Source of the DNA: Thermodesulfobacteriota bacterium
GTDB taxonomy: Bacteria; Desulfobacterota; Desulfobacteria; Desulfobacterales; C00003060
Assembly (NCBI GenBank): GCA_034189385.1
Contig: JAXHVD010000008.1
Span: 1 to 64,000, forward strand
DNA: 64,000 bases
Reading direction: 5' to 3'
Positions 14,103-39,278 of this stretch are shown piece by piece. The first letter of the stretch is position 1. Every line of letters begins with the position of its first letter. A program made the translations under genes and the position numbers. The notes under the pieces were generated by a model. It was not told the origin of the DNA. It saw nothing but the letters and a program-made list of their open reading frames with translations, and searched no databases.

Positions 14103-14972
14103 ATGGATCCGGCGTTAATCAAACTGGCCCTTGGCGGTCTGGCCGTTTTGGGCTGCATCGGGCTCTTTTTCGGTATCGGCCTGGGCCTGGCGGCCCACAA
14201 ATTCGCCATTCAGATCAACCCCAAGGTGGAAGAAGTCATCGAGGTCCTGGCAGGGGCCCAATGAGGTGCCTGCGGCTTCCCAGGGTGTGAAGCTTACGCG
14301 GAGGCGGTGGTAAACGACCCCGATGTCCCGCCAAACCTGTGCTTTCCCGGTAAGGAGGAGGTTGCAGAGGCCGTGGCCGCCATCACGGGCAAAGCGGCGG
14401 GGGCCGCGGAAGCCCTGGTGGCGGTGGTGCACTGTTCCAGGGTCCAGGGGGGTGTGCACAAGAAGTATAAGTACACCGGCCACCAAACCTGCGCTGGGGC
14501 CAGCCTGGCATTTGCCGGTCCCATGGGGTGCCAATACGGTTGTCTTGGTTTTGGAGATTGCGCGGCCGCGTGTCCCTTTGACGCCCTTCACATGGTAAAG
14601 GGCTTTCCAGTGGTAGATCCAGAGGCCTGTGTGGCCTGCGGCAATTGTGTGCATGCCTGTCCCAAGGAGCTTATCAAGCTCATTCCCAGAAACGCCCGCG
14701 TGATCATCCCGTGCAGCACGAAGGATAGCCCCAAGGTGACCATGTCCGTCTGCAAGGTGGGGTGTCTGCACAACAGGGCCTGCATCAGGAAATGCCCGGC
14801 CAACGCCATCTCCGAGGTGGACGGGGTCGTGACTGTAGATCAGAAAAAGTGCATCGCCTACGGCCCGGCCTGTAAGGAAGTCTGTCTCTCTGCCTGTAAG
14901 AAAGTCCATATACTCCAACCCATGAGTCTTGAGGGAACCTATAAGAGGCTCACAGAAGCGGCGGCCGCCTAG
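14103..14972 (+). CDS. rnfB: Rnf complex subunit B, selenoprotein (Sec54, TGA 14262-14264)
   Basis: Read-through gives MDPALIKLALGGLAVLG...LAGAQ-U-GACGFPGC...CFPG, where U replaces the first Cys of the RnfB CxxCxxxxC motif. A hairpin follows the TGA. Confidence 0.9.
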
Positions 14973-14989
14973 GATTCAAGGAGAAGACC

Positions 14990-16030
14990 ATGTCTCGGCA
15001 ACAGAATAACGGCGAGGAGATGGATCGAAGGACCTTTCTAAAATACTCCGGTGTGCTGGGCCTGGGGGTGGCCTTTGGCGGGCTGATGCCTACGTCCGAA
15101 TGCGTGGCCTTTAACAGGAAGCTCTGGAAGGTGACCCGCACCCGCCTTTCCATGGGGACCTTTTGCGCCATTACCCTCATGCATGGGTCCAGGGCTGAAG
15201 CAGATGACGTGATCGGAAAGACCTTTGAAGAAATGGATCGCGTAAGTCGGCTGCTTAATCGCTATGAATCGGACTCCCTCGTGGCAGTACTGAATCGGGA
15301 GGGCCTGCTTTGCCACACGCCACGGGAGGTGTCTGACGTGATCGGCCGATCGCTCTATTTTCACCAAGCAAGCGGTGGTGCCTTTGACATTACCGTAAAG
15401 CCCGTGGTGGATCTGTACAAGGCGCATTTTGAGGCCCACAAGACCCCTCCCCCCGAGGCCCAGGTGGCCCGGGTCCTAAACCTGGTGGATGCCCGCGGGG
15501 TCCAGCTTGACGGCCGGACCGTACGATTGGCGAAAGAGGGGATGGGCATTACCTTGGACGGCATTGCCAAGGGATATGTCATCGACTGCGGGGCCAGGGT
15601 TATGAAGGGGTACGGTATTCAACACGCCCTTATCAATGCCGGAGGCGACATTCGGGCCATCGGGGGAAGGAAAAGCAACATCCCGTGGAAAGTGGCTGTT
15701 CAAGATCCTAAAAAGACAGGGCCTTATGCGGAGACCCTCGCCATGATGGACGGTGCCATCGCCACGTCAGGCAATTATGAACTCTATTTTGACCAAGAAA
15801 AGCTCTATCATCACATCGTGGACCCGAAAACAGGCCACTGTCCTGTTGAAAGCACCAGTGTGACCGTGATGACTCAAAACGCCATGGATGCCGATGCCCT
15901 TTCCACAAGCGTCTTTGTGCTGGGCCCCGGCGAGGGGAAGCGTTTTGTCGAGACCATAGCCGACACGGAATGCCTCATCCTGGACTCGAGGGAGCAAAAG
16001 GTGATGTCCAATGGATGGCCGTCGGGCTGA
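14990..16030 (+). CDS. apbE: FAD:protein FMN transferase ApbE with Tat signal
   Basis: DRRTFLK; GAFDITV, LDGIAKGY, INAGGDI, ATSGNYE, HHIVDPKTG and ADALST. Confidence 0.93.
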   Translation: MSRQQNNGEEMDRRTFLKYSGVLGLGVAFGGLMPTSECVAFNRKLWKVTRTRLSMGTFCAITLMHGSRAEADDVIGKTFEEMDRVSRLLNRYESDSLVAVLNREGLLCHTPREVSDVIGRSLYFHQASGGAFDITVKPVVDLYKAHFEAHKTPPPEAQVARVLNLVDARGVQLDGRTVRLAKEGMGITLDGIAKGYVIDCGARVMKGYGIQHALINAGGDIRAIGGRKSNIPWKVAVQDPKKTGPYAETLAMMDGAIATSGNYELYFDQEKLYHHIVDPKTGHCPVESTSVTVMTQNAMDADALSTSVFVLGPGEGKRFVETIADTECLILDSREQKVMSNGWPSG

Positions 16031-16198
16031 AGCGGGTTTGTCCTTGTGTGCAGACCCGTGAGCCTGGATGTGGAGACATGGTATCTGCAGTTTCGTTCAT
16101 AGTTCACATCACCGCATGGTTGAGGACTTGAACCCCTTTTTCTGTTTTACTGTATTGGAGAAAACGGAGGGAGGGGGAGAAGAAAAGGAAAGGCTGAC

Positions 16199-16615
16199 AT
16201 GGATTACGCTCACATGACCGCTCCTTGCGGACTGGATTGTTTTAACTGCCCCATGTATCTGGCAGCTGAGAACCAGGATCTAAAAGAGGCTGTTGCGAAG
16301 AATCTGGGCATCCCTGTGGAAAAGGCCGTCTGTAAAGGCTGTAGAAACGAAAATGGCACCATAGCCTTTTTAAATAAGACGGAACCCTGCAATGTCTACA
16401 AGTGCATAGGGCAAAAGAAGATCGAGTTTTGTTGTGATTGCTCGGACTTCCCATGTGATTATCTCCATCCCTATGCAGATAAAGCCAATGAGGTTCCCCA
16501 TAATACGAAGGTATTCAACTTGTGCTTGATCAAAAAGATGGGATTGGAAGCCTGGGCAAGAGACAAGGCAAGAAGTGTCAAAAGGACCTATTTCAAAGGA
16601 CGATGGAAAATCTAG
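16199..16615 (+). CDS. DUF3795-family Cys-rich protein
   Basis: APCGLDCFNCP...CKGCR...C..YKC...FCCDCSDFPC pattern. Confidence 0.8.
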   Translation: MDYAHMTAPCGLDCFNCPMYLAAENQDLKEAVAKNLGIPVEKAVCKGCRNENGTIAFLNKTEPCNVYKCIGQKKIEFCCDCSDFPCDYLHPYADKANEVPHNTKVFNLCLIKKMGLEAWARDKARSVKRTYFKGRWKI

Positions 16616-16665: not shown

Positions 16666-17478
16666 TCAGACGCGTTTTCTCTTATCATCCAGGGTGTGGC
16701 TTAGATATTGGTGCACCAGCTCCTCTGGGACGAGGCTTGGAGCACTTGTGATCACCTCGATACCCTCTTGCCCCAAGAGGGCGAGTGCCCGGTGGCCCAT
16801 GCGTCCTGCAATAATCACTTCCACGCCCAGTTGATGAAGCCAGTGTGGCAACAGTCCCGGCTCGTGGGATGGCGGAGTCAACAGGTTTTTCCGCGTTATT
16901 TCTTGGTTTTCCACTTGGACAATGGCGAATTGCGGCGCATGGCCAAAATGGGCTGCCAGAGATCCTTCGGCCACGGGAATGGCGATCGTCATGGCTGTGG
17001 CCCCTTCCTTCTTGCCTTTTTCCCGGATAGATGATGTTGCCACAGAGATGGTCGCCTGAGCGGCCTCCACGATTTTTGCCACCCGTGAACGGCCCGGCAT
17101 CAAGAAGTGTGGCTCGCCGAGGCGGCCGGATATAAAGCCTTGGAGCACGTCCTCAATCTGGCCGGCGATTCCGTCAATGACGCGGATGCCTGCACCTTCG
17201 AGCATGTTATCCAGGACCTCGCTGATGCCGGCACAGATCAATGTCGTCACGCCCGCCCGTTGCAGGGCGGCCACCCGTTCAGATGGCCAGAGGCCGTAGA
17301 CACGGAGCTCACTCTTTTTCTCGTAGTGATCACCCTCGACGTCGAAGGTAAGGACACGAAGACACGCGTCAAAGACAGGGGCAATGCGCCGTTGAAATAC
17401 GGGTATGGCCACCCTGGTCACGTGGGTTGTATCGGTTTTCGCTGTTTCTGTAAGGGATGCTTCCACAACCTCTCTCAC
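16666..17478 (-). CDS. Tandem NifB/NifX-family domain protein
   Basis: Domain 1 RIAPVFD...LICAGI; domain 2 AHFGHA...H.PG..P.WL. Confidence 0.8.
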   Translation of the reverse strand: MREVVEASLTETAKTDTTHVTRVAIPVFQRRIAPVFDACLRVLTFDVEGDHYEKKSELRVYGLWPSERVAALQRAGVTTLICAGISEVLDNMLEGAGIRVIDGIAGQIEDVLQGFISGRLGEPHFLMPGRSRVAKIVEAAQATISVATSSIREKGKKEGATAMTIAIPVAEGSLAAHFGHAPQFAIVQVENQEITRKNLLTPPSHEPGLLPHWLHQLGVEVIIAGRMGHRALALLGQEGIEVITSAPSLVPEELVHQYLSHTLDDKRKRV

Positions 17479-18179: not shown

Positions 18180-19520
18180 ATGGAATCACGCAAGCTGGGC
18201 ATTGGACATGGTCAGATTATCCTGGACAGCATTGCTGACGGGGTCTTCACGGTGGATTTGGAATGGCGAATTACCTCCTTCAACAAAGCTGCTGAAGGGA
18301 TCACGGGAATTCCGCGTGAAGAGGCCATTGGTCAGCCTTGTTGTGAAGTACTAAGGGCCAATGTCTGTGAGGACGGTTGTGTGCTACGCCGGACCATGGG
18401 CAGTGGAAAGCCCATTCGAAACATGCCCGTTCACATCATCCGTGCGGACAAGAAGGTCATCCCTGTGAGTGTGAATACGACCCTGTTAAGGGATGAGGAG
18501 GGCCAGGTGATAGGTGGTGTGGAAACCTTCAGCGATTTGACCTTGGTCCATGAACTGCGCAAAGAGCTTCGCAAGGGGCATTCCTTCGGCGATATTGTCA
18601 GCAAGAATCAAAAGATGCTGGAGCTTTTTTCAATACTGCCTCACATTGCCCAGAGTAATAGCACGGTCATGATTGAAGGGGCCAGCGGCACCGGCAAGGA
18701 ACTCATAGCCAGGGCCATTCATAATGGGAGCTTGCGGAAGCAAGGGCCTTTTGTGGCCGTAAACTGCGGCGCAGTGCCTGAAACCTTGATCGAATCGGAG
18801 CTTTTTGGATATAGGGCCGGGGCTTTTACGGACGCCAAAGGGAATAAGCCGGGCCGATTTGCCCTGGCAGAAGATGGGACCCTCTTTTTGGATGAAATTG
18901 GGGACATCTCGCAGGCGGCCCAGGTGCGGCTTCTTCGGGTCCTGGAACAGAAGGTATACGAACCATTGGGCTCTACCAAGCCTGTGAAGACGAATGCGAG
19001 GGTGATCACGGCAACCCATTGCAACGTGGAGGAGATGGTTCAACAGGGTACGTTCAGAGAAGATTTATACTACCGCATTAATGTGGTGAGACTATCCCTC
19101 CCACCCCTGTCGGAACGAAAAGGCGATATCCCCCTCCTGGTGGACCACTTCTTGGATCGCTTCAACCATCTGACAGGAAAACATTGCGTCGGTCTCTCGT
19201 CAGAAGCCATGGCCACCCTCATGCTTTGCGAATGGCCTGGAAATGTGCGCGAACTTGAAAACGCCATCGAAAGCGCCTTTGTCCTTTGCCAGGGAGAACT
19301 GATTGAACAGCGCCACCTGCCCAAAGAGCTGATTCCTCAAGACCGATCTGGGGTTGTCAGTACCGGTTTGACGCTTAAAGAGGCAGAAAGGCGTACCATT
19401 GAGGAAGCCCTTGAGAGGAATCATTGGAGAAAAGTCACAACAGCCCGCGAACTGGGGATCGATAAGAATAGCCTTCGTCGAAAGATAAAGCGCCTCGGCA
19501 TTGTGAGACCTTCCGACTGA
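18180..19520 (+). CDS. PAS-domain sigma54-dependent activator (bEBP), paralog 1
   Basis: PAS, GASGTGKE, ESELFG..GAFTDA, LFLDEIGD, WPGNVREL and a Fis HTH. Confidence 0.95.
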   Translation: MESRKLGIGHGQIILDSIADGVFTVDLEWRITSFNKAAEGITGIPREEAIGQPCCEVLRANVCEDGCVLRRTMGSGKPIRNMPVHIIRADKKVIPVSVNTTLLRDEEGQVIGGVETFSDLTLVHELRKELRKGHSFGDIVSKNQKMLELFSILPHIAQSNSTVMIEGASGTGKELIARAIHNGSLRKQGPFVAVNCGAVPETLIESELFGYRAGAFTDAKGNKPGRFALAEDGTLFLDEIGDISQAAQVRLLRVLEQKVYEPLGSTKPVKTNARVITATHCNVEEMVQQGTFREDLYYRINVVRLSLPPLSERKGDIPLLVDHFLDRFNHLTGKHCVGLSSEAMATLMLCEWPGNVRELENAIESAFVLCQGELIEQRHLPKELIPQDRSGVVSTGLTLKEAERRTIEEALERNHWRKVTTARELGIDKNSLRRKIKRLGIVRPSD

Positions 19521-19624: not shown

Positions 19625-19869
19625 TGTCCCATATTGTTCCCTTTAAGCCCCGCTGCGGGGGAATGCTGCCCCATATTGTTTCCCGCAGTGCGATTATTCA
19701 AGAGGAATGGAACAGTTTGTTCCCTTAAAACGCCCCTAATGCTCTAAATTGTTCCCAAATTGATGCTGGAGCCCTGCCTTCATCATGCCACCACGGCGCA
19801 GATTACTGTGTTTTTCCAATTGGTTATCTTCATGACAAAGAGACTTCCACGGGCTGGCACGATTCTGGC
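19625..19869 (+). promoter_or_regulatory. Four candidate enhancer boxes and sigma54 promoter (19855-19869)
   Basis: ...TTGTTCCC-type boxes at 19625, 19667, 19708 and 19740; TGGCACGATTCTGGC. Confidence 0.65.
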
Positions 19870-20295
19870 TTAAGACATTTCCACAACAAACCAGATCTGG
19901 GTCATGTTGCCATGGGCCATGACGATCATCATGTAGCCCTGTTAAGGCGTTGGCCAATACACGGACTGCAGAGTCCTCTCTTTGCGGTCCTTGGCTCTTT
20001 TTTGACACCTACAATACCCTGGAGCGGTAGGTTGAGCACCACCAGAGCAAACCCTGGGGCAACGGGGGGTGATCTTTTCAAATGGCATCAACGTATTTAG
20101 CGGAGGGGGTGATTTGCGGCAAGGATGAGGGACTGCCATAGCGGTTTACATGGCAGATCCACTAACTGGTCAGAGGAGGCAATCATTCATTGAAGGTTTG
20201 AAAGCTGGTCTTAAAAAAATGCAGACAAAAGGCGTGATATGAGAGAGATGGACTTTCCTTGTAGAGGAGGAGTAGAAAACAAAAAGGGAGGAGAA

Positions 20296-21606
20296 ATGAA
20301 AAAAGAGACAGATCTTAGTAGAAGGAAGTTCTTGAAAGGGAGTGTCATCGGGGCCGGTGCCCTGACAGCGGGCTTTGCAGGAGGCCTTGGTGTCCCCGGC
20401 ACCGCCCATGCTTCGCTCCCGGTGTTGCCGCTGCCGTATTGTAAAGACAGTGGCGGCACCCCGACGAACACGCCGAACGCATCGAATCAAACCGTCCTTG
20501 ACCCGGACGACGTGCGGGTCATGACCTGGTGGTATTATTCCTCCCAGGGCAAGGGGTGAATGCAGTCCGTTGTGTCAGGTTTGATGCAAGGATTCAAAGC
20601 GGCATTTGCCAGTGACGGCACGGACTGGGACTTTATTCCCTACGACATGTTAACTTACGGCGGAGGCGGCATTGGCGGTTGGGGCACCCTGTGCGGGATT
20701 GCCAACGGGTGTCCAGCGCTGTGCAATCTCATCGGCCTCCACGGCGCCCTGGGATCAGACATCCTGGGCCACTATTCCAGCACCGAGTGGCCGCCTGCGT
20801 CGCTTGCCGACATTTACTGGGATGATGATCCCACCTACGGCCCTTCGAGCGCCGGCTACAGCGGTATTTGGTCGGCAGCCAAGACGCCCATACCGGATGA
20901 CGAGGTCTTGGCCAAGGTGATCCCTTATTCACCCCTGTGCCACATTTCCATCAGCAAGTGGTGCTATGCGGCAGGCGTCAACTTGGGGAGTCCGAATCCC
21001 TATGGCTTCACGCACAAGAATGATCGCTGCGGCAAGATAGCCGCTGAGATGGCCGGTTATACGGCTGAACTGATCAATTATTACGCTCTTAACGGGGCCT
21101 CGGCAGATCCGTACGCGATCCCAGCGGCAACTGCAGACTGCCTTACCTGTCACTACACAGGGAGCAATCCCAATATAGCTCCCGCCCAGATCACCAAAAT
21201 GGACTGCGCGGAGTGTCATGCGGTCACGCCCGACGCCGTTCATCAAGGCCTGAGGATGATCGTTGAAAGTGTGTGGACAGCAGACGGCTCCGGCACGCCC
21301 AAGAACACCTTTACCTCGGGTGACCCGATTCAGTACAAGGTTCGGTTCCACCTCTTGGGTGCCGGCTTTAGCTTCGTGAAGACCGCTGATTCCAAGGTAA
21401 AAGACAGTGCAGCCGTCAAGATGCTGAAGCTTATCAAGAGTGACACGTTAGTTGCAGCTACCTATGAATGGACGTTTTCTGACACCATCGACCCAACCGA
21501 TGCCCTTGGCACGGCAAAGGTCGTTATGAAATTGAAGTGCTTCGACTATCAAGGTGGCAATCTCCTTGATAAGCAGGAAATGAAGTACAAGTTTACCATC
21601 GTATAA
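20296..21606 (+). CDS. Split-Soret cytochrome c-like (C-GCAxxG-C-C family) selenoprotein with Tat signal (Sec88, TGA 20557-20559)
   Basis: SRRKFLK; two ORFs abut in frame across the TGA; YGGGGIGGWGTLCG, LCHISISKWC, RCG, CLTCH and CAECH; hairpin TTGTGTCA-GGTT-TGATGCAA. Confidence 0.85.
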
Positions 21607-21839: not shown

Positions 21840-23144
21840 ATGGCTGAACAAGCAATAGATCTCGACAAAGTCACAAGAAGCTTCAAAAAGGAGGTCATGG
21901 AAGTCATCCCGGGCGGGGGCAATTTGGATCTGTGCCTCAACTGCGGGACGTGTGCTGCGGGCTGCCCTGCCACGGGTCTTGCAGACATGGACCCCAGGAA
22001 GTTTCTAAGAATGATCCTGCTCGGTCTGCATGAAGAGGCAACCAAGTCGCCCTGGGTATGGATGTGCACCGGGTGCCAGCGTTGCATCTACGCCTGCCCC
22101 ATGGAGATCGACATCCCCAGGCTGGTGTACAACGCGCGGGCCACGTGGCCCCGTGAAGAGCGGCCAAAGGGGATCCTTGGTTCATGTGATATGGCATTGA
22201 GAAATGACAGCGGTAGCGCCATGGGGGCATCTCCTGAGGACTTCACCTTTGTCGTAGAAGATGTGCTCGAAGAGGTGAAGGAGAGCCAGCCCGGCTGGGA
22301 GGAGCTCCAGGCCCCCGTAGATAAAAAGGGCGCCCATTTCTTCTTAAATCAGAATTCCAGGGAACCGGTGACCGAACCGGATGAACTCATCCCCTTGTGG
22401 AGAATCCTGCACGTTGTTGGTGCCGACTGGACATACGGGAGCAAGGGATGGGCTGGAGAGAACTACTGCATGTTCCTTGCCGACGACAAGTCCTGGGAGC
22501 ATGTCACACGGACCAGCATCATGCAGTGTGCAGAACTGGGATGCAAGGTCTACCTCAATACCGAATGAGGGCACGTCACCTTTTCAGTCCTGGAAGGACT
22601 GAGAAAATTCAAGATCCCTTACGATTTTGAAGTAGCGAGTATCTATCAATATTATGCAAAATGGATCCGGGAAGGAAAGCTCAAGGTCAACTCCGACTGG
22701 AACAAGGACCTGAAGCTGAAATTCACGGTGCAGGACCCCTGTCAGATCATTCGCAAGAGCTACGGTGATCCTGTAGCAGAGGACCTGCGTTTTGTGGTCA
22801 AGTCTGTTGTGGGAGAAGAGAATTTTATTGAGATGTGGCCCAACAAGTCGAATAACTTCTGCTGCGGTGGAGGCGGAGGCTTCCTCCAGTCAGGATATGC
22901 CGATGAACGTCGGGCCTATGGCAAGATTAAGTTTGACCAGATCGTGGCGACAGATGCTGATTACTGCGTTGCTGCGTGCCACAACTGTCATGCGCAGATC
23001 CACGATCTGGCCCATCACTTCGAAGGCAAATACCAAACCGTCCATTTGTGGACACTGATCTGTCTCTCCCTGGGGATCCTGGGTCCGAATGAACGTGAGT
23101 ATCTCGGAGACGACTTGAAAGAAGTCAACATGCCGCCCGAGTAG
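21840..23144 (+). CDS. HdrD/HmcF/TmcB-like Fe-S protein with CCG domains, selenoprotein (Sec243, TGA 22566-22568)
   Basis: Two CxxCxxCxxxCP motifs; NTE-U-GH matches the ECGH motif; in frame with QDPC, CCGGGGG and CHNC; hairpin TCAGTCCT-GGA-AGGACTGA. Confidence 0.9.
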
Positions 23145-23161
23145 AAAGGATCCAGGCATTG

Positions 23162-25717: not shown

Positions 25718-25902
25718 GCCTTTTTCTCCTTCGTCTCCTCAATCAGGCTGACTGTGAGAAGCTATCCGCCTCTTTGCCGATAAGGGCCTTGAACCGATCC
25801 AATGAATTGATCAAAGCCAGCCCAAAGGTTCAGCCAACTGCATTGGAGATGATCGGCCCTCCCTAAACGGTGGCTATAAGATGCAGCACCCGGCTGCGTC
25901 GG

Positions 25903-26121: not shown

Positions 26122-26226
26122 TCGTTGAAAAACCTCCGGTGACCTTGATTCGATGGCATCAAGGGTAATGCATACGGAATAAACTCCCGGGCGGGAGACG
26201 TTGTTACCATCTGCGCCGCCCGTGCG

Positions 26227-28020: not shown

Positions 28021-28126
28021 ACTGGTTAAGACCCCGGAAGAGGGCAACTCGTATAAGGTGGATCCTATTGCCTCTGGCGGTCTCCCTGGAGGCTCCGGTC
28101 CTGGTTTTGCCGAAAGCGAGGGGCTG

Positions 28127-28723
28127 CTAGAGAAAGTCTCTTATCATGCCGACAGGGAGGCCAATGACAAGTCGATCTCTCCCGATGGCTCCGTATTTTC
28201 GGGAATCGGGGCAACCAAAGGACAGGCAAATTCGTTTGGTCCTGTGTACCTTAGCCACGACGCTTCCACATACGGCCATCACACTGGAGGCGGCTATATC
28301 AAGATCGGTACCCTTGACTTGTTGCCATAGACGAAGGAGCCTCATGGCGGCCTCTGGTTGGGTATAAGATATAGCGATGTCCGGAGAGTCGGTGTTTCCT
28401 ATGGTGACAGAGACGGCAGGTTCTAGATGGGGCGTATTGGCAACGAGCTTTTGTGCCACATCAGGGTCGGTGCCCGAGGCCTCCGCTATTTTGTGTGCGA
28501 GGCTGTCATCCAGATCAGTCGCCCAGCCAAGGCTCCTTAGGGCCCCGGGACAAGAGATAAGGTCTTTGGTCAAGACAATGGGTCGGGTGTAGGACTCTTT
28601 TATCGCTTCACAGAGCCGCATCTTTCTCTTTGCCAAGTCTTCTTTGACGGGATCGTTTCCGTTAAAGGTGATCCCTGTCCAACGTCCGCCAATTTTTTCC
28701 TCAAGTAGTTTTAGTTCCTCCAT
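28127..28723 (-). CDS. DUF169-family protein
   Basis: LC......SCPGA...LG; AVCG....SFGC.DSR.YG. Confidence 0.7.
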   Translation of the reverse strand: MEELKLLEEKIGGRWTGITFNGNDPVKEDLAKRKMRLCEAIKESYTRPIVLTKDLISCPGALRSLGWATDLDDSLAHKIAEASGTDPDVAQKLVANTPHLEPAVSVTIGNTDSPDIAISYTQPEAAMRLLRLWQQVKGTDLDIAASSVMAVCGSVVAKVHRTKRICLSFGCPDSRKYGAIGRDRLVIGLPVGMIRDFL

Positions 28724-28855: not shown

Positions 28856-29527
28856 CTAGGGCTTTTTCTTCTCAAGCTCTTTGATTCGCGACTGGATCTC
28901 GTCCATCTGTGCACGCAACAGCTTGGCCTGTTCCTTGAGGTCTGCAAGGTCTTGTTTGCCTGTAACCCCACTGGAAGGTGGGTCTGTCAATGAGGTGGAC
29001 TGCATAGGGCCCATACCGCGACCGCACCCTATGCCACGGCCGCATCCTCTCCCTCGTCCTCCTCCCATGCCTCTGCCCCCGCCTCCTCCCATGCCGCGAC
29101 CTGTCCCAAAACCCGTGGCAGGGATCTGGCGGTTATCTGGAGATGGAGGCCCAGGCGGGAGGCTGCCCATGCCGAAATGATTCTCTACATTGGGTTTTTG
29201 GGCTGGTTTCAGGTGGCCCTCCTTGTATTGCTGGGCGGCATCACGCACCGTTCCCGCAACACCGGTGATCACCTCAAGACCCACCTCTGAAAGGACCTCG
29301 TAGGCGTTGGGGCCAACATTTCCTGTGAGCACGGCCTTTACTCCTTGGTCCACAACAACCTTGGCTGATTGTATTCCGGCTCCACCTTGTTGGCCAATGC
29401 TCGCATTGTCCAACGCCTCAAAGCTCATGTCATCCAAATCCACAATCAAAAAGCATTGACACCTCCCGAATCGAGGATCAACTGCTGAGTCAAGGGTTGG
29501 TCCCGTTGACGATACCGCTACTTTCAT
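28856..29527 (-). CDS. NifB/NifX-family (Orange-protein-like) protein with Gly/Arg-rich tail and coiled coil
   Basis: MKVAVSS...VDPRFGRC..F, GGAGIQSA and TGNVGPNA. Confidence 0.88.
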   Translation of the reverse strand: MKVAVSSTGPTLDSAVDPRFGRCQCFLIVDLDDMSFEALDNASIGQQGGAGIQSAKVVVDQGVKAVLTGNVGPNAYEVLSEVGLEVITGVAGTVRDAAQQYKEGHLKPAQKPNVENHFGMGSLPPGPPSPDNRQIPATGFGTGRGMGGGGGRGMGGGRGRGCGRGIGCGRGMGPMQSTSLTDPPSSGVTGKQDLADLKEQAKLLRAQMDEIQSRIKELEKKKP

Positions 29528-29550: not shown

Positions 29551-29970
29551 TTAGTTGATTTCCTCCACGTTCTTGCCTGCATTGGGCCCGGGACTGGTGA
29601 CAAAGATGTCTGTAATCTTCACCACAACAGCCGATTTGGGCGTCAAATCAGGCTTTTCCTCCTTCACCATGGCAACGGCCATGTCGTAGATTTTGCCGGA
29701 GGTTTCGATCCTGGGCTCTCCCTTGAACTGATAGCCTTTTCTGGGCTTCACATCCCAGTCCCATACAGAGATCGCCATGATAGGATTCTGCTGAATGTTT
29801 TCAAAGGTCTTCTTCATGAAGATGTCAGCCAGCATGATCTCATCATCTGACAGGATCTTGACAAAATGAATAGGGACCACATTAGGGATGCCTTCTTTGG
29901 TACATGTTGCTATGGAGTACCCCCTGGTCTTTTCCATCACGTCCTTCATGTCTTGCGTCAGTTTGGCCAC
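29551..29970 (-). CDS. Pyridoxamine 5'-phosphate oxidase-like FMN-binding protein
   Basis: ATC.KEG.PNVVP, D.FM.KT..N...NP, GYQFKG and SPGP.AGK. Confidence 0.85.
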   Translation of the reverse strand: MAKLTQDMKDVMEKTRGYSIATCTKEGIPNVVPIHFVKILSDDEIMLADIFMKKTFENIQQNPIMAISVWDWDVKPRKGYQFKGEPRIETSGKIYDMAVAMVKEEKPDLTPKSAVVVKITDIFVTSPGPNAGKNVEEIN

Positions 29971-30440: not shown

Positions 30441-32654
30441 TTAGAAGACGTAATTCAAGCCTGCACTCAAGACATAGAGTTCGCCATCATCGCTAAAGAG
30501 GTAAGGGTCGTCATCCTCATACACGGTCATGGCAAGTCCCACGCCCAAGGCAAGGTCAGGATTGATGTCATAAGCAAGATCCATCTCCAGACTATATTGC
30601 TGGATGTCCAGATCAGAATACCCCGGAACGCTGGTAAGATCATAGGCATAACCCTGGGTGGCCGGATCATAACCGGTCCAGTCGTTTTGGTTAAAGGTCA
30701 TGCTGTCGATTTCAGCTGTGGAGTCTGTGAAAGAGCCTGTAAGCGTACAACTGAGTTTGTCAGTCGGTAAGTAGGTGGCTGAGAGAATGGCGGTGTGACT
30801 TTCGATCTCATAGTCTTCACTGGTTGCGAGCGAGCCAAACTGGCCCGTTGTGATGCCGCCCGCTCAGCCATTAAAGACCGGTATACAGACCACACTCTCC
30901 CTTGTTTCATCGTCATAGAGGTAGCTCAACATGAAACTCAGCTTCTCGTGAGGCGTGTACCACAAGGAGACCGAAGGCATGTGGAGTTCGCCGTCTCCGC
31001 TAGTGGTGTCCTCATCCTGCCATCGATAATGCCCCGAGAGACTCAGATTGTGTCTGATGGGGTAGCTCACATTGGCCGTTATCTCATGGCGCTCTTCAGG
31101 CTGATTGCTCATGTCCTGGGTCCTCGTCGTCCAGAATTGGTAGTACTGCTCACCAGTTCTCCAATTGCCGGTCACTTCTTGGGTCCCAAAGGCCTCGCAA
31201 GCACCGCCCTGATCGCTGGCTGTGGAGTTGACGAACTCATCATCGATGTCCTCGAAGGTGTATCGGACCCGTGCCTTGAGCTTTCCCCACCGGCCGTTTA
31301 CGCCCAGCTTGTACGTATCTATCTCTGTTTCTGTTTCATTCTCTGCCACCAGGTAGTCGTCGCGATCGATCTGTCGCCACTCATAGCTACCGTAGACTGA
31401 GAGCCCCGGCCGAATGGTGTACCGTGCCTTTAGATCGGCCCTGTAGTCATCCCTGGAAAGGGCCGACTCCCTGTTGTAGGGCCATGTAAAGGCCGGGTCA
31501 GAGGTCCCATAGAAGCTCTGATAGGTCCCGCTGTAATCTGGATTGGCGCCAGTGGGTTCCGCGTAATTTACAAGATAATCGTCGTTGTCGATTTCCATCC
31601 ATCGGAACCCGGCATTTAAGACCAGATTGGGGATATAGCTGTTGGTGATCCTAAAAGAGGCGGCATCCGTGTCAATCTCCAGGCTGCCGTCCACCATGTT
31701 GTCCCGGTTTTTCACGTTGGAGTTCACATAGGAAGCAAAGAGGCTGGTGTTTGTATCAGGAAGGGTCGCCTCTGCCTTGACCTTGTGGGTCTGCTTGTCC
31801 ATCTCAGGCACTTGGTCGAAGGCGAGCTCCTCATTTTGATACCACAACCGGTCTCCAAAGGGTTTGCTACCGATCTTTCTGGGATTGACCCCTTCATCAT
31901 AGAGATTGTGCGGGGTATGGCCCTCTTCCTTGAACTCTCGGTAGAGGAAGCTGTATTCCAGGGCAAGCTGGTTGGACCTGGCATCGCCAAACTTCGCCGT
32001 AATACTGGGATTGTAGTCCTCTGTATCCTCAGCAATAGAGCGGCTGTGGCTCTGCACATGGCAGGACGTACACTTGCTCATGGTCATGGATTGGCGATGG
32101 CCGTCCCTGGTCTCTTTTCGATAGTCAAATTTAAACTGCCCCCCAGGGATAAAGGGGAGGGCAATCTGGGTGCTGCTTTTGGTTTCTGTATGGATGATAT
32201 GGTATTCGCTACCCATATCGTAGTCGGTATGATGGGTGATGACGTGTGGGTCGCCGGGCGAATACACAGCGTTGAGGTTATCCATCGGGTCATGGTCCAG
32301 CCAGTGTTGAAAACGGTCGTATTCAAAGCTTTGCCTGACCATGCGTCTGAAATCCGCATCCAGATGGTATTGCTGCTCTTCGTCATCTAGAAAGTGGCCA
32401 CCAATTCCAAAGTAATCATCGCCTTTGTTTCCAGAGAGAGAAAACCCGATGGTCGGGTGGAGGCCTTCGTCCATGACCTCATACTCTCCCACCTTCCTGC
32501 TGTCTAGATCGGACGTTGCCACGGCCTCAAAGCCCGCTTCAAATTCAATCTCTGCCTCAACGTCTTCTGTAGCCGCCCAGGTTGGTGTTTGACCCCATAC
32601 CAGTAAAAGCGCAATAAAAAGGCTGAGGCCTATCCATTTAATGTTCTTTTTCAT
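30441..32654 (-). CDS. MtrB-like outer-membrane beta-barrel with CxxCH (GSU2204-like), selenoprotein (Sec597, TGA 30866-30864)
   Basis: Signal peptide; CTSCH; CIPVFNG-U-AGG continues in frame to the C-terminal barrel signature LNYVF; hairpin CGGGCCA-GTT-TGGCTCG. Confidence 0.85.
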
Positions 32655-32701: not shown

Positions 32702-33745
32702 TTACCTGGTCAAGGCCTTGCCTTTTCCTGGTACGGCCTGTGACGGCAAATCAGAACCGTGAATCCTCGAGTGACACTGGGTACACTTGGTCGTCCAAGC
32801 CCTCTTGAAGGCCAAACGGTCCGAGAGGTCATGGGCCTGGGCATATTTGGCATTGTTGTCCGGATTCACCTGGTACGTGGTGTACGGAAAGCTTTCATTG
32901 CCCTTATAAGGAAATTCGGCCACAGGTGTATCCAAGTCTTCGTCCCAGCCGACCTTGCCAGCATGGAAGTGAAACTCGTGGCACTGGAGGCAAAGGAAGG
33001 GTTCATTCTGCGAGAGGAGATTGTTCGCAATGGTCCCATGGGCCGAATGGCAGATGGTGCAGTCTTCCACCACTGGTGCGTGCTCAAAGACAAAGGGGCC
33101 CTGCTTGGAAGCATGACAGGTCAGGCACAGGTCGTTTAGCCTTTCATCTGTCTTGAGACTTCCCACGGCAGAGCCATGGGGATCATGACAGTCAGAACAG
33201 CCCATCTTTCCTTCCCTGATGGGATGATGGGAAGGATATTGGACTTTGGCCTGGATGTCCGGGTGACAGCTGTAGCAGCCTTCAGGCTCTGCCTTGGCCA
33301 GCAGATGCTTGCCTGCCGGCGGGTGGACCTTGTGGCATTCCACGCAACTCACATTATTCATGTGGTGCTCGCTGCCGCCCCAGTGATATCTGGTGTGACA
33401 GTCCAGACAAATCCTAGACTGTTCGGCCGCGGTGAGCTCACCAAATGCGATAATGTCAGAAGGTGCCTCTGATTCAACGTGCAAACTCCCGCCCCCGTGG
33501 CACGTTTCACAACCTGTGCCCAGGCCTGCTGTTTCAAAAGGGGCGATCCTGCCGTGAATGGTTTTGTCAAAGGCGTTGCAGACCTCGTCATGACAGTCGG
33601 CACAGGTCTCACTGCCCACGCTTGTGGCCCCCTGTATGACGGGCAGGCACACCGCTTTGGGTGGCAAGGCCTGCTTGGCACACTGCGTGCCGGCAAAGGC
33701 CACCAATGATAGTAACAATAGAAACCAAGGAAACTTTTTCTTCAT
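32702..33745 (-). CDS. Decaheme c-type cytochrome (MtrA/DmsE-like)
   Basis: Ten CxxCH; GPFVFEHAPV.EDC..CH and IHGSD.P; probable lipoprotein signal. Confidence 0.93.
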   Translation of the reverse strand: MKKKFPWFLLLLSLVAFAGTQCAKQALPPKAVCLPVIQGATSVGSETCADCHDEVCNAFDKTIHGRIAPFETAGLGTGCETCHGGGSLHVESEAPSDIIAFGELTAAEQSRICLDCHTRYHWGGSEHHMNNVSCVECHKVHPPAGKHLLAKAEPEGCYSCHPDIQAKVQYPSHHPIREGKMGCSDCHDPHGSAVGSLKTDERLNDLCLTCHASKQGPFVFEHAPVVEDCTICHSAHGTIANNLLSQNEPFLCLQCHEFHFHAGKVGWDEDLDTPVAEFPYKGNESFPYTTYQVNPDNNAKYAQAHDLSDRLAFKRAWTTKCTQCHSRIHGSDLPSQAVPGKGKALTR

Positions 33746-33999
33746 GCCCTGTTCCTCCTGTGTGGTTTGGGGTCGCCTCTCCTGGCGACAAACCACTAAA
33801 ATAGCTTTCTTAGGTTATTCCTCTTTCAGGCGAATCGGCTCTTCAGTGAGAAAGCTGGCACTGTTGAACCAGAATAAGGCCTAAAGTCTCTTGCATCTGA
33901 CCCGGCCTTCTTCGCCTCCTCTATTACTTAATTGTCATGCGACACCTTTTCGCGCTGCGGATATCACCTCCTTTCTTCGAGCATTACAACCATCGATCT

Positions 34000-34401
34000 C
34001 TATGAATGCCTTTGTTTATCGTAAAGGGGACCTGTCCCTTCTCCCTGGCGAGAAGACCGTGTGCCGGCCCGTCCAGGCATAAGGAATTTAGGGTCGTCCA
34101 GCTGATGAGACGCAAAGGCTGAAAGCACCTCTTCTACATCTCCGGCTATCCCTGTGATGACAGAAATTCCTGAGCTTTCCAATATGACGCGTAGGGTGTG
34201 GCTGATGCCGCCACAGATCAAGGTCGTAACCCCTGCTCTCTTGAGCAAGGAGACACGTTCAGATGAGGAAGGGTTCTGGAAAGGTAGGTCGGTTCTCTCT
34301 ATATCAGAACCATCTCCAGTGCGGATGACCAAGGCCTGGAGACAAGAGTCAAAAACCGGCGCAACCCGAGATCGAAACACGGGTATGGCAAATATGGCCA
34401 C
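34000..34401 (-). CDS. NifB/NifX-family protein
   Basis: AIPVFRSRVAPVFD...LICGGIS; paralog of domain 1 of 16666-17478. Confidence 0.85.
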   Translation of the reverse strand: MAIFAIPVFRSRVAPVFDSCLQALVIRTGDGSDIERTDLPFQNPSSSERVSLLKRAGVTTLICGGISHTLRVILESSGISVITGIAGDVEEVLSAFASHQLDDPKFLMPGRAGTRSSRQGEGTGPLYDKQRHS

Positions 34402-34639
34402 GTGATGTAAGTGCCCTTCGTTTCTTCCCCTGGCTATGGGAAACGGTGTCTCGCAACCCCATCAAATACTCGAAGCGGCACGTACTCATGTCCCCCGAAC
34501 AGAGTTCCGTACCTTTAATCCATGGGGCGTGTGACATCCCTCCGTGCCGCTTCGAGTAGGGTTGCGAGACACCCTCCAGGGGGGGGTAGCATGCCCCAGA
34601 ATTCTCGTATCCCATACAAGACTATTCTATTGTCAAATG

Positions 34640-34801
34640 GCAAGATATGTGCCAATATAAAAAAAACAGGACAAATATATATAACTAGTTGAAATACAAG
34701 AAAATTTTGTTGCCTAATGGCGCACTTCCAGGCGGGTTGAGCAGCGGGTAATGGGGCCAAAATGAACCAGAGTAGCGTTCGCCAGGGAACAATGTGAACC
34801 A
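34640..34801 (-). promoter_or_regulatory. sigma54 promoter (34640-34654) plus two candidate enhancer boxes (34753-34769, 34785-34801)
   Basis: TGGCACATATCTTGC; GGGGCCAAAATGAACCA and GGGAACAATGTGAACCA; AT-rich IHF-like tract in between. Confidence 0.72.
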
Positions 34802-34926
34802 TGACCTTGATTTTGGCCACAGACCGTCATCTCTTGATAAAGGGCAGGAGAATTCGGTCATGAAGGTCCCCCTGTTTGCCGGGGATTCTTGGTTTCTCAT
34901 ATGTCTTACGGGCCGCGGAGAATGGC

Positions 34927-36267
34927 ATGACACGACCTAAGATGTCCGGCGCTGAACATCATCAGATCATCCTGAACAGTATTGCAGATGGGGTTTTCAC
35001 TGTTGATACCAAATGGCGCGTTACTTCCTTTAATAAGGCGGCCGAGAAGATCACGGGTATTCCCAGCGAAGAGGCCATCGGCCAGTTATGCTATGAAGTC
35101 TTCAGGGCCAATGTCTGTGAGTCAGGCTGTGTGCTCCGGCACACCATGAAGTGCGGCAGACCCGTTCGCAATATGCCGGTCTTCATTGTGCGGGCAGACG
35201 AGCAACAAATCCCTATCAGTGTGACTACCAGCCTCTTGAAGGACAGCACAGGCCGCATTGTGGGCGGTGTGGAAACCTTCCGCGACCTGACGGTCATCCA
35301 CGAACTCAGAAAGGAGCTGCAAAAACAGCATTCTTTTGGGGATATTGTCAGTAAGAATGAAAAAATGCGCAGCCTGTTTTCCATTCTTCCTCATGTGGCC
35401 CAAAGTGACAGTACGGTGCTTGTTGAAGGGGCCAGCGGTACAGGGAAAGAGCTCTTTGCCAGGGCGATTCACAACAACAGCGCAAGAAAGACAGGCCCCT
35501 TTGTAGCGGTTAATTGTGGGGCCTTGCCCGATACCTTGATTGAATCTGAGCTCTTTGGCTATAAGGCAGGGGCCTTCACGGATGCCAAGAAGGACAAGCC
35601 GGGCCGATTTGCCTTGGCCCAAGGCGGTACCATCTTTCTGGACGAAATTGGAGATATCTCCCAGGCTGTGCAGGTGCGCCTGCTGCGTGTGTTGGAACAA
35701 AAAGTCTATGAGCCTTTGGGATCTACCAAGGAGGTTCATGCCAATGCGAGAGTGATTACGGCAACACATCAAAACATGCAAGAAATGGTTGCGCAGGGAG
35801 AATTTAGGAAGGATTTGCTTTACCGTATCAATGTGATCAAATTGTCTTTGCCTTCCCTTTCGGAACGAAGAGAGGACATTCCTCTTTTGGTGGACCATTT
35901 TGTGGGACGGTTCAACCACCTGACAGGACAAGAGGCCCTGGGCCTGACCCAGGAGGCCATGGCCGCACTCATGCTTCACGACTGGCCCGGAAATGTCCGC
36001 GAACTTGAAAATGCGATAGAACATGCCTTTGTGCTGCGTCAAGAGGCACTCATTCGCCTGCGAGACCTGCCGGGCCACCTCGTACCGGAAGATCGTGCAG
36101 CAATTGTTCCCAGCGGTTTGACCCTGAAGCAGATAGAAAAACGTGCCATTCAGGAGGCCCTGCAACGAAATGATTGGAAAAGAGTGGCAACAGCCCGGGA
36201 GCTGGGTATTGACAAGAACACCCTCCGCCGCAAGATAAAGCGTCTGGGCATCATGGAAGCCCCTTAG
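34927..36267 (+). CDS. PAS-domain sigma54-dependent activator, paralog 2
   Basis: Same architecture as, and highly similar to, 18180-19520 (GAFTDA). Confidence 0.95.
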   Translation: MTRPKMSGAEHHQIILNSIADGVFTVDTKWRVTSFNKAAEKITGIPSEEAIGQLCYEVFRANVCESGCVLRHTMKCGRPVRNMPVFIVRADEQQIPISVTTSLLKDSTGRIVGGVETFRDLTVIHELRKELQKQHSFGDIVSKNEKMRSLFSILPHVAQSDSTVLVEGASGTGKELFARAIHNNSARKTGPFVAVNCGALPDTLIESELFGYKAGAFTDAKKDKPGRFALAQGGTIFLDEIGDISQAVQVRLLRVLEQKVYEPLGSTKEVHANARVITATHQNMQEMVAQGEFRKDLLYRINVIKLSLPSLSERREDIPLLVDHFVGRFNHLTGQEALGLTQEAMAALMLHDWPGNVRELENAIEHAFVLRQEALIRLRDLPGHLVPEDRAAIVPSGLTLKQIEKRAIQEALQRNDWKRVATARELGIDKNTLRRKIKRLGIMEAP

Positions 36268-37348: not shown

Positions 37349-37498
37349 TCCCTGGTGCGGCCTTGCTGATCAGGAGAAAATACTCATCGGTACACTGACG
37401 CCCGCGCTCCATTCCTTTTGAGGCCAGTGGATGGGCACCAACGTGTCCATCCACGAATGGCCATCTTACAGCGTCTTCCCTATGGGGCAGTATGGAGG

Positions 37499-37894
37499 TC
37501 ACGTCCTCAACACCAGGTGTCGTCGGGCCTCGCCCTTCTCGTATTCCTCCCGGACCCGTTTTGCATTGCCTTTCATGACCTCCACGGCGTCGCTGACCTT
37601 CTGGGTTCTGATAACCACGCAGAGCAGCTTTTTGAGCAGCCTTGGCAAGTTCGGCCCATAGGTCCTGGCTACCAGAACATGGAGCCCTTCAAGGGCGGCT
37701 AGGGTTGCCTGTGCCTTCTTTGGGTCACCGTGTCTCAGCGCCTCATTGCCTTTGTACTTGGAGTTGGTCCTGCGCTCTAAGAACTGAGCTTTGCCCCCAG
37801 AAAAGCTGTAGACGTCAAAGTATTTCGCCTGGCCTGCATGATCATTGATCATGTGCTCGCCATCGTCGGTACTGAAGCCAATCAGTAATTCCAT
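37499..37894 (-). CDS. NifB/NifX-family protein
   Basis: DHAGQAKYF..Y, E.R.N, HGDP.KA and GPN. Confidence 0.75.
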   Translation of the reverse strand: MELLIGFSTDDGEHMINDHAGQAKYFDVYSFSGGKAQFLERRTNSKYKGNEALRHGDPKKAQATLAALEGLHVLVARTYGPNLPRLLKKLLCVVIRTQKVSDAVEVMKGNAKRVREEYEKGEARRHLVLRT

Positions 37895-37919
37895 CGCGTT
37901 TCCCAAACGTCTTTGCCAT

Positions 37920-39278
37920 CTATTTCCTGAGCTTCTGCAGGGCCTGTTCTGCCGCAATGGCAATGGGTTCCAGACTCGGTTCAGAGGAGCAATCTGGATG
38001 GCCCGCACATATAAAGGTTGTCAGGTCGGCAATCGTTTTCTCTCCTAGAATCAGGGCGCATACGGCATCGATCTCCTTTGCCGGCGCCTGACTGTCACTG
38101 ATGATCTGGCCGCCGATGAGCCTTTGCGTCTTTTTGTCAAAGACGAGCTTAAGCGTCCAAGGCTTGGCCCCGCTGATCATTCCGTGCTTGCTCCTGGAAT
38201 CGACTACGGCACTAACTGTCTCAAACCCTTCACTGTCCTGGGCTTGGACTTCTGTCAATCCCGTTGCCGCAATGGTCTTGTCGAAAAGCTTGACGGCAGT
38301 GCTCATCAATACACCGGGAAATGCGATATCATATCCGGCCAGCCTCTTGGCCACAAGGCGTCCCTGTATCACGGCCGGACCGCGGATCTGTCCTGCAACG
38401 GGTTTCTTTGTAATAAAATGGGTCTTCTCCACGCAGTCGCCTGCGGCGAGGACATCAGGGTTTGACGTCTCCAAGAACTGGTTTACCTTTATGCCGTATC
38501 GACCTATCTCCAAGCCCATGTCGTTTGCCAACTCCAGATTTGCCCTCGCCCCTACGCCCACTATGACCATATCTGCATCCAACAGTTGGCCTGCGGCGAG
38601 CTCTACACTTGAAACGCGTCCGTCTTGGCCCTTGATCTTGGTCACTTCCTCGCCCATTTTCATGGTAAGGCCTTTTTCAACGAGGTATTTCTCAATATTG
38701 AGCCCCATCTCCGTATCTAACATGAACGGCAACGGATGGGCCCGCCGGCCAACGACCGTCATCTCATCATAGTCTGGCATGGAGGCTGAAAGAAGGGTAG
38801 CTGTCTCCAGACTGATAAAACCCGCTCCTATGAATACCAGTCTCCTGGGTTTGCGCTCATCAATGAAGGCCCTTATTCTTTCTGCGTCCGGCACCTGCCT
38901 CAGTGTAAAGACCCCTTCCAGATCGTGGCCTTCAATCTGAGGCACCACCTGTGTGGCCCCGACCGCCAGCACCATCTTGTCATAAGGGACCTCACTTCCA
39001 TCCGACAATGCTATCATCTTCTTTTGGGCATCCACGTGTGTTGCCCGGGCCTTTATGAGATTGATGTTGGCATTGGAAAACATCTCGTCAGGATTGGTAA
39101 TGGAGTCTGCCGTGGCCAGACCGGCCACTACATGGGGCAGGGCTCACCTTACAATGAATCGTTCCTCCTCGCTAATGATGGTCACATCAACTTCCGGCAT
39201 GAGTTTCCTGCTGAGCATGGCAGCAGGCCCTCCCACGCCACCGCGGCCGACAATCACCAGTTTTTCACCCTTTTCCAT
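37920..39278 (-). CDS. NADH oxidase / CoA-disulfide reductase-like flavoprotein, selenoprotein (Sec45, TGA 39146-39144)
   Basis: Read-through from ATG39278 (AGGAGG RBS) gives VIVGRGGVG...FIVR-U-ALPH, with U at the single redox Cys position; GAGFISLE and AAGD; hairpin GTGGCC-GGTCT-GGCCAC. Confidence 0.9.

Follow-up and report, generated by a model that had tools for sequence, protein, structure and literature searches.

All six protein families that concern us here are found in NCBIfam, in reviews or in both, and are thus already catalogued as selenoproteins, mostly from sequence analysis. They comprise RnfB, the C_GCAxxG_C_C proteins, the HdrD/GlpC-like Fe-S oxidoreductases, the GSU2204-family outer-membrane barrels, the flavoproteins resembling CoA disulfide reductase (CoADR) and the FmdB family. 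The family lists of two reviews, of 2026 (PMC13188914) and 2022 (PMC9312934), name each of them, with entries such as "Fe-S oxidoreductase-like protein" (UGH), "C-GCAxxG-C-C family protein" and "Putative regulatory protein, FmdB family", and the available part of Zhang and Gladyshev 2008 (PMC2398784) covers the FmdB family and covers neither the barrel nor RnfB. In a further study, GSU2203 (OmcK) and GSU2204 were up about 2.4- to 2.7-fold with hematite (PMC4070692). We found no literature on the chemistry of a barrel or an RnfB containing selenocysteine (Sec, U), nor any biochemical study of the GSU2204 family. Here we analyse the first 64,000 nucleotides (the window) of contig JAXHVD010000008.1 (C63 in our numbering), from an uncultured, Desulfobacterales-type organism with a sulfate-reducer-type genome (4.13 Mb in 64 contigs, 90% complete). 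Within 25.2 kb of this window, five genes for redox proteins of these families each contain an in-frame TGA. We conclude with good confidence that these are ordinary Sec codons in members of catalogued families, and that the proteins belong to separate functional units.

The in-frame TGAs lie at 14262-14264 and 20557-20559 and 22566-22568 on the plus strand and at 30866-30864 and 39146-39144 on the minus strand, and a sixth, in an FmdB-family gene, at 25911-25909 on the minus strand. All six positions are as claimed in an initial annotation made from the letters of the window, which had read them as UGA codons recoded through a selenocysteine insertion sequence (SECIS). The five principal genes, with their predicted Sec residues, are as follows.

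14097-14972, plus strand: rnfB selenoprotein, 291 amino acids; U56, Sec codon 14262-14264.
20239/20296-21606, plus strand: Tat (twin-arginine translocation)-exported dihaem selenoprotein; Sec codon 20557-20559, U107 counted from the ATG at 20239.
21840-23144, plus strand: HdrD/GlpC-like Fe-S oxidoreductase selenoprotein, 434 amino acids from the M at 21840; Sec codon 22566-22568, NTE-U-GH.
30441-32654, minus strand: GSU2204-family, MtrB-like 26-strand outer-membrane barrel; Sec codon 30866-30864, U597, PVFNG-U-AGGIT.
37920-39278, minus strand: CoADR-like FAD/NAD(P) oxidoreductase selenoprotein, 452 amino acids; Sec codon 39146-39144, U45, FIVR-U-ALPHV.

Reading the TGA as U joins two open reading frames (ORFs) into one protein of normal length in all five genes, and dicodon coding scores, trained on long ORFs of the host genome, are positive on both sides of each TGA. 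We searched each window protein, with stops read through, against one common set of 151 genomes sampled from the order; the genome counts given below were taken at the E-value cut-off of each search. The homolog alignments contain Cys/TGA pairs for all five genes, with Cys or U at the same column in relatives, and the earlier statement on replaced motif Cys residues was correct. The host genome also encodes the complete Sec machinery, all of it outside the window as the initial annotation had stated: selA elsewhere on the same contig (C63:111592-112689), selB on C10, tRNA-Sec (selC) on C31 and selD, with an in-frame TGA of its own, on C29.

A hairpin with a G-bearing loop had been noted after each UGA in the initial annotation, and it is present, about 19-25 nt 3' of the codon. 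When the 48-nt stretch concerned was set against every other in-frame window of that length in its gene, the stability z-scores were -2.3 (barrel), -2.2 (flavoprotein), -1.2 (HdrD-like protein), -0.5 (RnfB) and -0.4 (Tat protein). By raw stability, only the barrel and flavoprotein hairpins exceed the other in-frame windows of their genes. With only two of five unusually stable, stability alone proves little as a SECIS test, and conservation among relatives is the better evidence.

It could be argued that the TGAs are genuine stop codons or result from pseudogene lesions or errors of assembly, with the downstream frames being chance ORFs or separate genes. Gene callers do cut the barrel family at the Sec codon, and the hairpins of RnfB and the Tat protein are no more stable than average in-frame windows, which counts against Sec recoding. 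However, many independent genomes share a TGA at this codon and others encode Cys there; in RnfB, the flavoprotein and the HdrD-like protein, Pfam domains and family models run across the site; the last 140 residues of the barrel are needed for its closure and for its ...YVF end; and the Sec machinery is present in the genome. We give the idea of genuine stops next to no credence. Thus, as far as sequence analysis goes, UGA/SECIS recoding is supported in all five genes, each UGA presumably being decoded by SelB at the hairpin just downstream, and the initial reading holds for these five on the strength of their TGA/Cys columns, frames and Sec machinery; for the sixth site it is only plausible. 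The identities first given to the genes were essentially right, as judged by Pfam, NCBIfam and PDB matches. The chemical roles proposed below for each Sec are ones that we infer.

The rnfB gene stands near the end of an rnf operon that spans 9110-16030 on the plus strand and comprises, besides rnfB, the following genes.

9110-10459, plus strand: rnfC (NCBIfam rnfC, 477 bits, above the cut-off).
10469-11557, plus strand: rnfD (NCBIfam rnfD, 328 bits, above the cut-off).
11503-12468, plus strand: rnfG (match below the cut-off, in the expected order).
12478-13101, plus strand: rnfE (RnfE-type NF009070/PRK12405, named RsxE, 215 bits against a cut-off of 184).
13102-14061, plus strand: rnfA (match below the cut-off, in the expected order).
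14990-16030, plus strand: apbE, FAD:protein FMN transferase with a Tat signal (Pfam ApbE, 256 bits), which closes the operon.

Pfam FMN_bind and Rnf-Nqr matches agree with these assignments, and the true start of rnfA is probably later than annotated because its domain begins at residue 131. RnfB itself scores 377.5 bits against NF005503 (cut-off 252), with rnfCDGEA adjacent. PF04060 covers residues 51-83, and U56 is the first Cys of the N-terminal Fe-S motif (...AGAQ-U-GACGFPGC). In its place in the model, in the UxxC position and in the full rnfCDGEAB operon end, the protein resembles the Sec-RnfB already catalogued. RnfB matches occur in 134 of the 151 genomes. Among 30 fetched loci the first Cys of [UC]GxCGxxGC is U in 7 and C in 22, and one locus lacks the motif. 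The seven Sec forms, the window's own included, are nearest relatives (62-81% identity), and RnfBs of 40% identity carry Cys; in the 151-genome sample, only a small clade has the Sec form. The hairpin (GCUUC/GAAGC, loop CCAGGGUGU) is kept in 6/6 relatives, with one pair altered on one side. The rnfCDGEAB-apbE products would form a ferredoxin:NAD+ oxidoreductase in which Sec, substituting for the first ligand Cys of the N-terminal [4Fe-4S]-type motif, may tune a low-potential cluster.

The Tat protein is 455 amino acids long from the first ATG and 436 from its likely start at 20296, and its signal scores 23.4 bits against TIGR01409 (cut-off 16.7). It contains a four-Cys domain of the C_GCAxxG_C_C type, of which U is the first Cys, two CXXCH haem motifs and an additional C-terminal domain of about 120 amino acids. 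Over both the four-Cys domain and the two CXXCH motifs it is homologous to PDB 1H21 (E = 2.3e-13), the split-Soret cytochrome c of Desulfovibrio desulfuricans, in which a Cys lies opposite U in the alignment. The window protein differs in scoring 73.6 bits against a cut-off of 400 for the split-Soret equivalog NF047622 and in carrying the extra C-terminal domain. 1H21 reportedly holds an Fe-S centre through the Cys of the four-Cys domain, a result ascribed to Abreu in 2003. With the C_GCAxxG_C_C selenoproteins (PF09719/TIGR01909) the protein has in common that the first conserved Cys is U, and it carries a Tat signal; a stand-alone selenoprotein of that family is encoded elsewhere in the host genome (C56). 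PF09719 matches 7/7 homologs of the Tat protein, and four of these exceed the 27-bit cut-off. In the window protein itself PF09719 gives no match at E <= 1; the four-Cys pattern is present there, with U first.

Matches to the Tat protein were found in 11 of the 151 genomes, and 14 translated loci have U (8) or C (6). Two paralogs are present in the host genome, an 82% identical Sec form on C12 and a 59% identical Cys form on C29. The hairpin, with a GGUU loop, is kept in four of five relatives. We propose that the protein is a periplasmic dihaem protein whose split-Soret-type C_GCAxxG_C_C domain would have Sec as the first of its four Cys. The Cys-form paralog on C29 (C29:10803-11726 and C29:17712-18968 being the two loci) lies about 6 kb from the Sec-containing selD. 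The C-terminal domain (21250-21606, plus strand) has no family match; it recurs, at 38% identity, in a 633-amino-acid ORF 3 kb 3' of the C12 paralog (C12:221246-221665), and likewise within a 629-amino-acid open frame in genome G119, which is from the same genus as the host.

The HdrD-like gene begins 234 nt after the Tat-protein gene. This adjacency is not conserved: genome G050 has the Tat selenoprotein and lacks a close HdrD-like ortholog, and paralogs within the host genome are on other contigs. The protein contains Pfam CCG and Fer4 domains and two 4Fe-4S motifs, and its UGH has Cys counterparts in relatives; NTEUGH motif, CCG domain and 4Fe-4S motifs are all shared with the catalogued UGH Fe-S oxidoreductase-like (GlpC/HdrD-like) selenoproteins. 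This family is credited, reportedly and by way of a review, to Kryukov and Gladyshev in 2004. The window protein differs from HmcF, TmcB and DsrK in falling below their equivalog cut-offs (165.6/750, 144.8/735 and 108.7/400 bits, respectively), and a Pfam scan of the region found no membrane or cytochrome partner subunit adjoining its gene. It matches 141 of the 151 genomes, mostly with one TGA. All 30 fetched TGA loci read NTEUGH and all four fetched stop-free loci read NTECGH. The hairpin is kept in 30/30, with two compensatory pairs (UA in 21 and GC in 9; UA in 23 and GC in 3 for NTEUGH loci), one of which costs a Leu/Arg exchange. The host genome holds four Sec paralogs. The protein would be a cytoplasmic CCG-domain Fe-S oxidoreductase of the HdrD/GlpC type with Sec in NTEUGH.

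The barrel is part of a run of minus-strand genes, listed here from upstream to downstream.

34000-34401, minus strand: small Nitro_FeMo-Co (NifX-like) gene (Pfam, 34.9 bits), upstream of the cytochrome.
32702-33796, minus strand: GSU2203-family decahaem c-type cytochrome with 10 CXXCH (NF041028, 432.4 bits against 325; TIGR03508, 241 bits).
30441-32654, minus strand: the barrel.
29551-29970, minus strand: PNPOx-like gene (Pfam), downstream of the barrel.
28856-29527, minus strand: Nitro_FeMo-Co/DUF5320 gene (Pfam), downstream of the barrel.
28127-28723, minus strand: DUF169 gene (Pfam), downstream of the barrel.
26857-28047, minus strand: CDF metal exporter fused to Nitro_FeMo-Co (Pfam), downstream of the barrel.

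Judged by strand and spacing only, the genes from PNPOx-like to CDF may be co-transcribed with the barrel. The barrel protein has 737 amino acids and an outer-membrane-typical C-terminus (...LNYVF). It scores 585.7 bits against NF041027 (GSU2204 family CXXCH-containing (seleno)protein; cut-off 350) over residues 15-596, with the Sec codon at the end of the model and the GSU2203-type cytochrome adjacent. Its CXXCH lies at residues 195-199, and C195, C198 and H199 are invariant in 42 aligned sequences. The decahaem cytochrome adjoins the barrel in all three loci examined and is its periplasmic partner. The pair thus compares with GSU2203/GSU2204 in having both models above the cut-off, cytochrome-barrel adjacency, the invariant CXXCH and the Sec codon after ...F-[ND]-G, and differs in the 737-amino-acid length of the barrel, in the Desulfobacterales-type host and in the NifX-like, PNPOx-like, DUF169 and CDF genes that its run adds.

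Barrel matches were found in 3 of the 151 genomes, and the relatives of 69% and 38% identity keep both the TGA and the downstream frame. All 30 family proteins taken from 90% clusters stop at the TGA, their last residues being ...[FY][ND]G. The initial claim that standard gene callers fragment every gene of the group thus holds for the barrel family, where alone it is demonstrated. Among 179 homologs, 134 end at the Sec column, and the others have Cys (4), Gly (2), Trp (1) or a gap (26) there or are fragments (12). The approximately 35 nt after the TGA are near-identical in a relative whose protein is 36-38% identical. Dependence of the CXXCH on Sec was considered and rejected, since CXXCH occurs in 169 of the 174 homologs that cover the position, including Gly, Trp and gap forms.

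An AlphaFold model of the barrel (predicted local distance difference test score, pLDDT, of 78) has 26 strands, and its best PDB match is MtrB (6r2q_B; E = 6e-24, template modelling (TM) scores 0.64/0.72). A precomputed PF11854 (MtrB_PioB) match is available for most homologs; for the window barrel there is no Pfam match to it at E <= 0.01. In the model, U597 lies in a loop (594-606, pLDDT <50) between two long strands, and another long hairpin carries CXXCH 195-199 at its tip. By strand count from the C-terminus, both fall on the long-loop side, which is presumably the cell surface. Like Shewanella MtrAB (6R2Q), the locus combines a predicted 26-strand barrel with a decahaem partner cytochrome of the DmsE/MtrA family; unlike it, there is no MtrC-like surface cytochrome encoded near the window barrel, and sequence identity is 12%. 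MtrB is not known to carry CXXCH and Sec in the form seen here. The two proteins would constitute a porin-cytochrome conduit of the GSU2203/GSU2204 (MtrAB-like) type with Sec in a surface-side loop of the barrel and the invariant CXXCH capping a second long hairpin on that predicted side.

The three Nitro_FeMo-Co genes of the run, namely the small NifX-like gene, the fusion to DUF5320 and the fusion to the CDF exporter, belong to a set of four such (NifX-like) genes within 18 kb, all on the minus strand (16666-17478, 26857-28047, 28856-29527 and 34000-34401); a DUF3795 gene and the DUF169 gene lie near them.

The flavoprotein has a Pyr_redox_2 domain (170 bits) and a dimerisation domain. It is not a CoADR equivalog, since it scores 247.3 bits against TIGR03385, for which the cut-off is 578.8. 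Its Sec occupies what we take to be the position of Cys43 of CoADR. Matches at E <= 1e-80 were obtained in 16 of the 151 genomes; 13 of the 16 loci read FIVRU[AS]LPHV, one reads FIVRCSLPYV, and two are distant or partial and lack the motif. The 5' arm and loop of the hairpin (GUGGCC-GGUCU-GGCCAC) are invariant in 13/13, wobble bases included. A methyltransferase gene follows on the same strand. With its Pyr_redox_2 and dimerisation domains and Sec at the position of the N-terminal redox Cys, the protein resembles the catalogued CoADR-type selenoprotein, for which the review entry gives the motif UGxP (PMC13188914); the window motif, U-A-L-P, differs. The protein would be a CoADR/Nox-like flavoprotein that carries Sec at the redox-active Cys position.

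The initial annotation had joined these five, the barrel with its cytochrome, the Tat dihaem protein, Rnf, the HdrD-like protein and the flavoprotein, into one selenium-dependent electron chain running from the outer membrane to the cytoplasm. Their local density is above chance, all five are redox proteins, and their predicted sites span outer membrane, periplasm, inner membrane and cytoplasm. Yet their genes are divided among four or more transcription units, which lie on both strands and have unrelated genes in between, and the selenoprotein genes of the genome are spread over at least 15 contigs. The linkage is not found elsewhere: in G037, a near-complete genome in 3 contigs, the barrel, a Cys-containing RnfB, the HdrD-like gene and the flavoprotein lie at 0.49, 2.0, 4.4 and 5.17 Mb, and in G146 the Sec-RnfB and HdrD-like genes are 100 kb apart. 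The surroundings of the barrel in G037 and G119 share only the decahaem cytochrome with the window; besides it, G037 has a DtxR-like repressor and a CxxCxxCC protein near the barrel, and G119 has a Metal_resist protein together with CbiA, RACo and PFOR. The co-occurrence check that had been suggested also went against the chain, the five families being unevenly spread over the 151 genomes (barrel 3, Tat protein 11, flavoprotein 16, RnfB 134, HdrD-like protein 141). Finally, a Pfam scan found no inner-membrane quinol dehydrogenase or cytochrome b encoded in the region as an inner-membrane link. With neither conserved linkage nor an inner-membrane module, the five are best seen as independent members of a large selenoproteome. 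We consider the single chain very unlikely, and it should not be carried forward without expression data.

The size of that selenoproteome was estimated by a census in which all TGA-joined frames of the genome were filtered by coding score and 39 shortlisted frames were compared with NCBIfam. Nineteen further genes have a family domain across the U: three HdrD-like, three HdrA, two formate dehydrogenases, SelD, PrxU, a Prx-like protein, HesB, UXX-star, a rhodanese, an ExtKL cytochrome, OS_HP2, VhuD, C_GCAxxG_C_C and a PhnD-like protein. Two shortlisted frames proved false, one joining rplT and pheS in one frame (L142) and the other with a domain that starts after the U (L150), and the other 18, which had no match at E <= 1e-12, were not counted. 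The Sec-form Tat paralog is the twentieth further gene, and together with the five in the window this gives at least 25 selenoprotein genes. If genes were placed at random, the probability of five in 25.2 kb would be 0.0003 for 25 selenoprotein genes in the genome, 0.0026 for 40, 0.026 for 60 and 0.09 for 80. Local crowding is thus real for this genome.

Two further observations come from the census. On the 25-kb contig C28, three selenoprotein genes lie within 15.3 kb (C28:7736-23554), encoding a multihaem cytochrome of the ExtKL type (NF040886, 564 bits), HdrA and a paralog of the window HdrD-like protein with 89% identity to it. At C1:285380-286324, a PhnD-like periplasmic binding protein has an in-frame TGA inside its domain and a weak match to TIGR04553 (putative selenate ABC binding protein); by its sequence it may be a selenoprotein binding protein.

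Shared regulation offers another view of the crowding. Two transcriptional activators and two promoter-like sites in the window bear on it.

18180-19520, plus strand: PAS sigma-54 activator 1 with a Cys-rich PAS (Pfam Sigma54_activat, PAS, HTH_8); precedes the Tat gene.
34876-36267, plus strand: PAS sigma-54 activator 2 with a Cys-rich PAS; paralog of activator 1.
19855-19870, plus strand: -24/-12-like site TGGCACGATTCTGGCT, one mismatch to the consensus, about 430 nt before the Tat gene.
34639-34654, minus strand: -24/-12-like site TGGCACATATCTTGCC, one mismatch, ahead of the NifX-like, cytochrome and barrel genes.

Apart from the two weak hairpins, the observations that weigh against five unconnected genes are these. 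The crowding exceeds random scatter unless the genome holds some 80 or more selenoprotein genes, and the figure of at least 25 comes from a home-made filter and is a lower bound, not the full selenoproteome, because candidates under the score thresholds fell outside the census. Activators 1 and 2 share 75% identity, neither having any other close paralog in the genome, and they sit beside the Tat gene and beside the cytochrome-barrel and flavoprotein genes. Of 13 other flavoprotein loci, 3 also have an activator homolog in the 1.5-kb flanks of the gene (G119, G037 and G121; in G119 with 77% identity over the part within the locus), and of 29 other HdrD-like loci, 6 have one at such a distance. 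These neighbourhoods hint at shared regulation. The nine loci with activator homologs are L090, L094, L097, L066, L067, L069, L071, L080 and L082.

The island could thus be a partial regulon, in which the activators put the Tat gene, the NifX-like/cytochrome/barrel operon and perhaps the flavoprotein gene under one redox or metal signal. Such an arrangement, which we consider less likely than not, would make part of the island a co-regulated envelope stress or extracellular electron-transfer response and not a linear chain, a corollary to which we attach the same low probability. In its favour, besides the paired activators and their homologs near the flavoprotein gene and, in six genomes, the HdrD-like gene, are the -24/-12-like sites ahead of the Tat gene (19855) and the NifX-like/cytochrome/barrel genes (34654) and the metal-related neighbours, namely the CDF exporter in the window, the DtxR-like repressor in G037 and the Metal_resist protein in G119. 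Against it, sigma-54 motifs are not above chance in the window (44 matches against 39.6 expected), so that both sites are singled out by position only, and a strict -24/-12 motif is upstream of only 2/30 HdrD-like and 2/14 flavoprotein genes. There is no such activator within about 8 kb of the barrel loci of G037 and G119, and the activators of lower identity (38-43%) belong to the same family without being orthologs. Sigma-54 activators are, moreover, numerous in such genomes.

A reading that joins this regulon to the barrel's outer mouth goes further, and we think it unlikely. One redox or metal signal would switch on the Sec-dihaem protein, the Sec-barrel/decahaem conduit and perhaps the Sec flavoprotein, while the Sec loop 594-606 and CXXCH 195-199 would together form a haem- or metal-binding redox site. 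If this were true, the site at the outer mouth of the barrel would stand in for a separate surface cytochrome. Our preferred account remains that of ordinary Sec codons in separate functional units, and the crowding of their genes would then reflect genome history, perhaps with shared regulation, rather than one pathway.

The sixth site concerns a small gene on the minus strand.

25903-26121, minus strand: FmdB-family zinc-ribbon gene, ending ...GGFS-TGA-GCG-TGA, with the TGA at 25911-25909 and a second TGA at 25905-25903.

Up to the first TGA the gene is a 70-amino-acid ORF (25909-26121), with a TIGR02605 score of 56.6 bits (cut-off 31.3). A paralog on C7 (C7:13451-13663, plus strand) and two other relatives (L107 and L119) end in GFS-U-A-stop, GFS-U-G-P-stop and GFS-U-S-G-U. 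All four genes are followed by a hairpin of 5-8 bp that lacks a U-run and whose loop, about 20-24 nt past the UGA, bears a G. The four genes have no clear Cys-aligned column at the TGA, which is 1-3 codons from another stop. Because GFS-TGA recurs in four genes, each with a hairpin, a Sec next to the C-terminus with a candidate SECIS in the 3' untranslated region is plausible. An alternative placement of this site in a minus-strand ORF (25863-26786) was dropped, as its translation looks non-coding. Another candidate, the TGA at 45240 (plus strand, frame 45189-45611, GHYRH-U-G), passed the coding filter and was rejected for its low scores and lack of a family match. It has a paralog at C43:2998-3303 with which it shares GH[YH]R[HN]-U-G, and neither frame is probably a gene. 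The window also contains a 6S RNA at 57566-57748 on the minus strand (Rfam RF00013, 53.6 bits; gathering score 46.4).

The window genes are further members of known selenoprotein families and do not constitute a new system. They extend five or six of these families by new members, Cys/Sec pairs and conserved hairpins, and they illustrate clearly how selenoprotein genes are broken up by gene calling, with 134 of the 179 barrel homologs cut at the Sec column. The window also shows how densely selenoprotein genes can pack in sulfate-reducer-type genomes. The most notable of its products are an MtrB-like barrel predicted to combine Sec with CXXCH and an RnfB that would carry Sec at an Fe-S ligand position.

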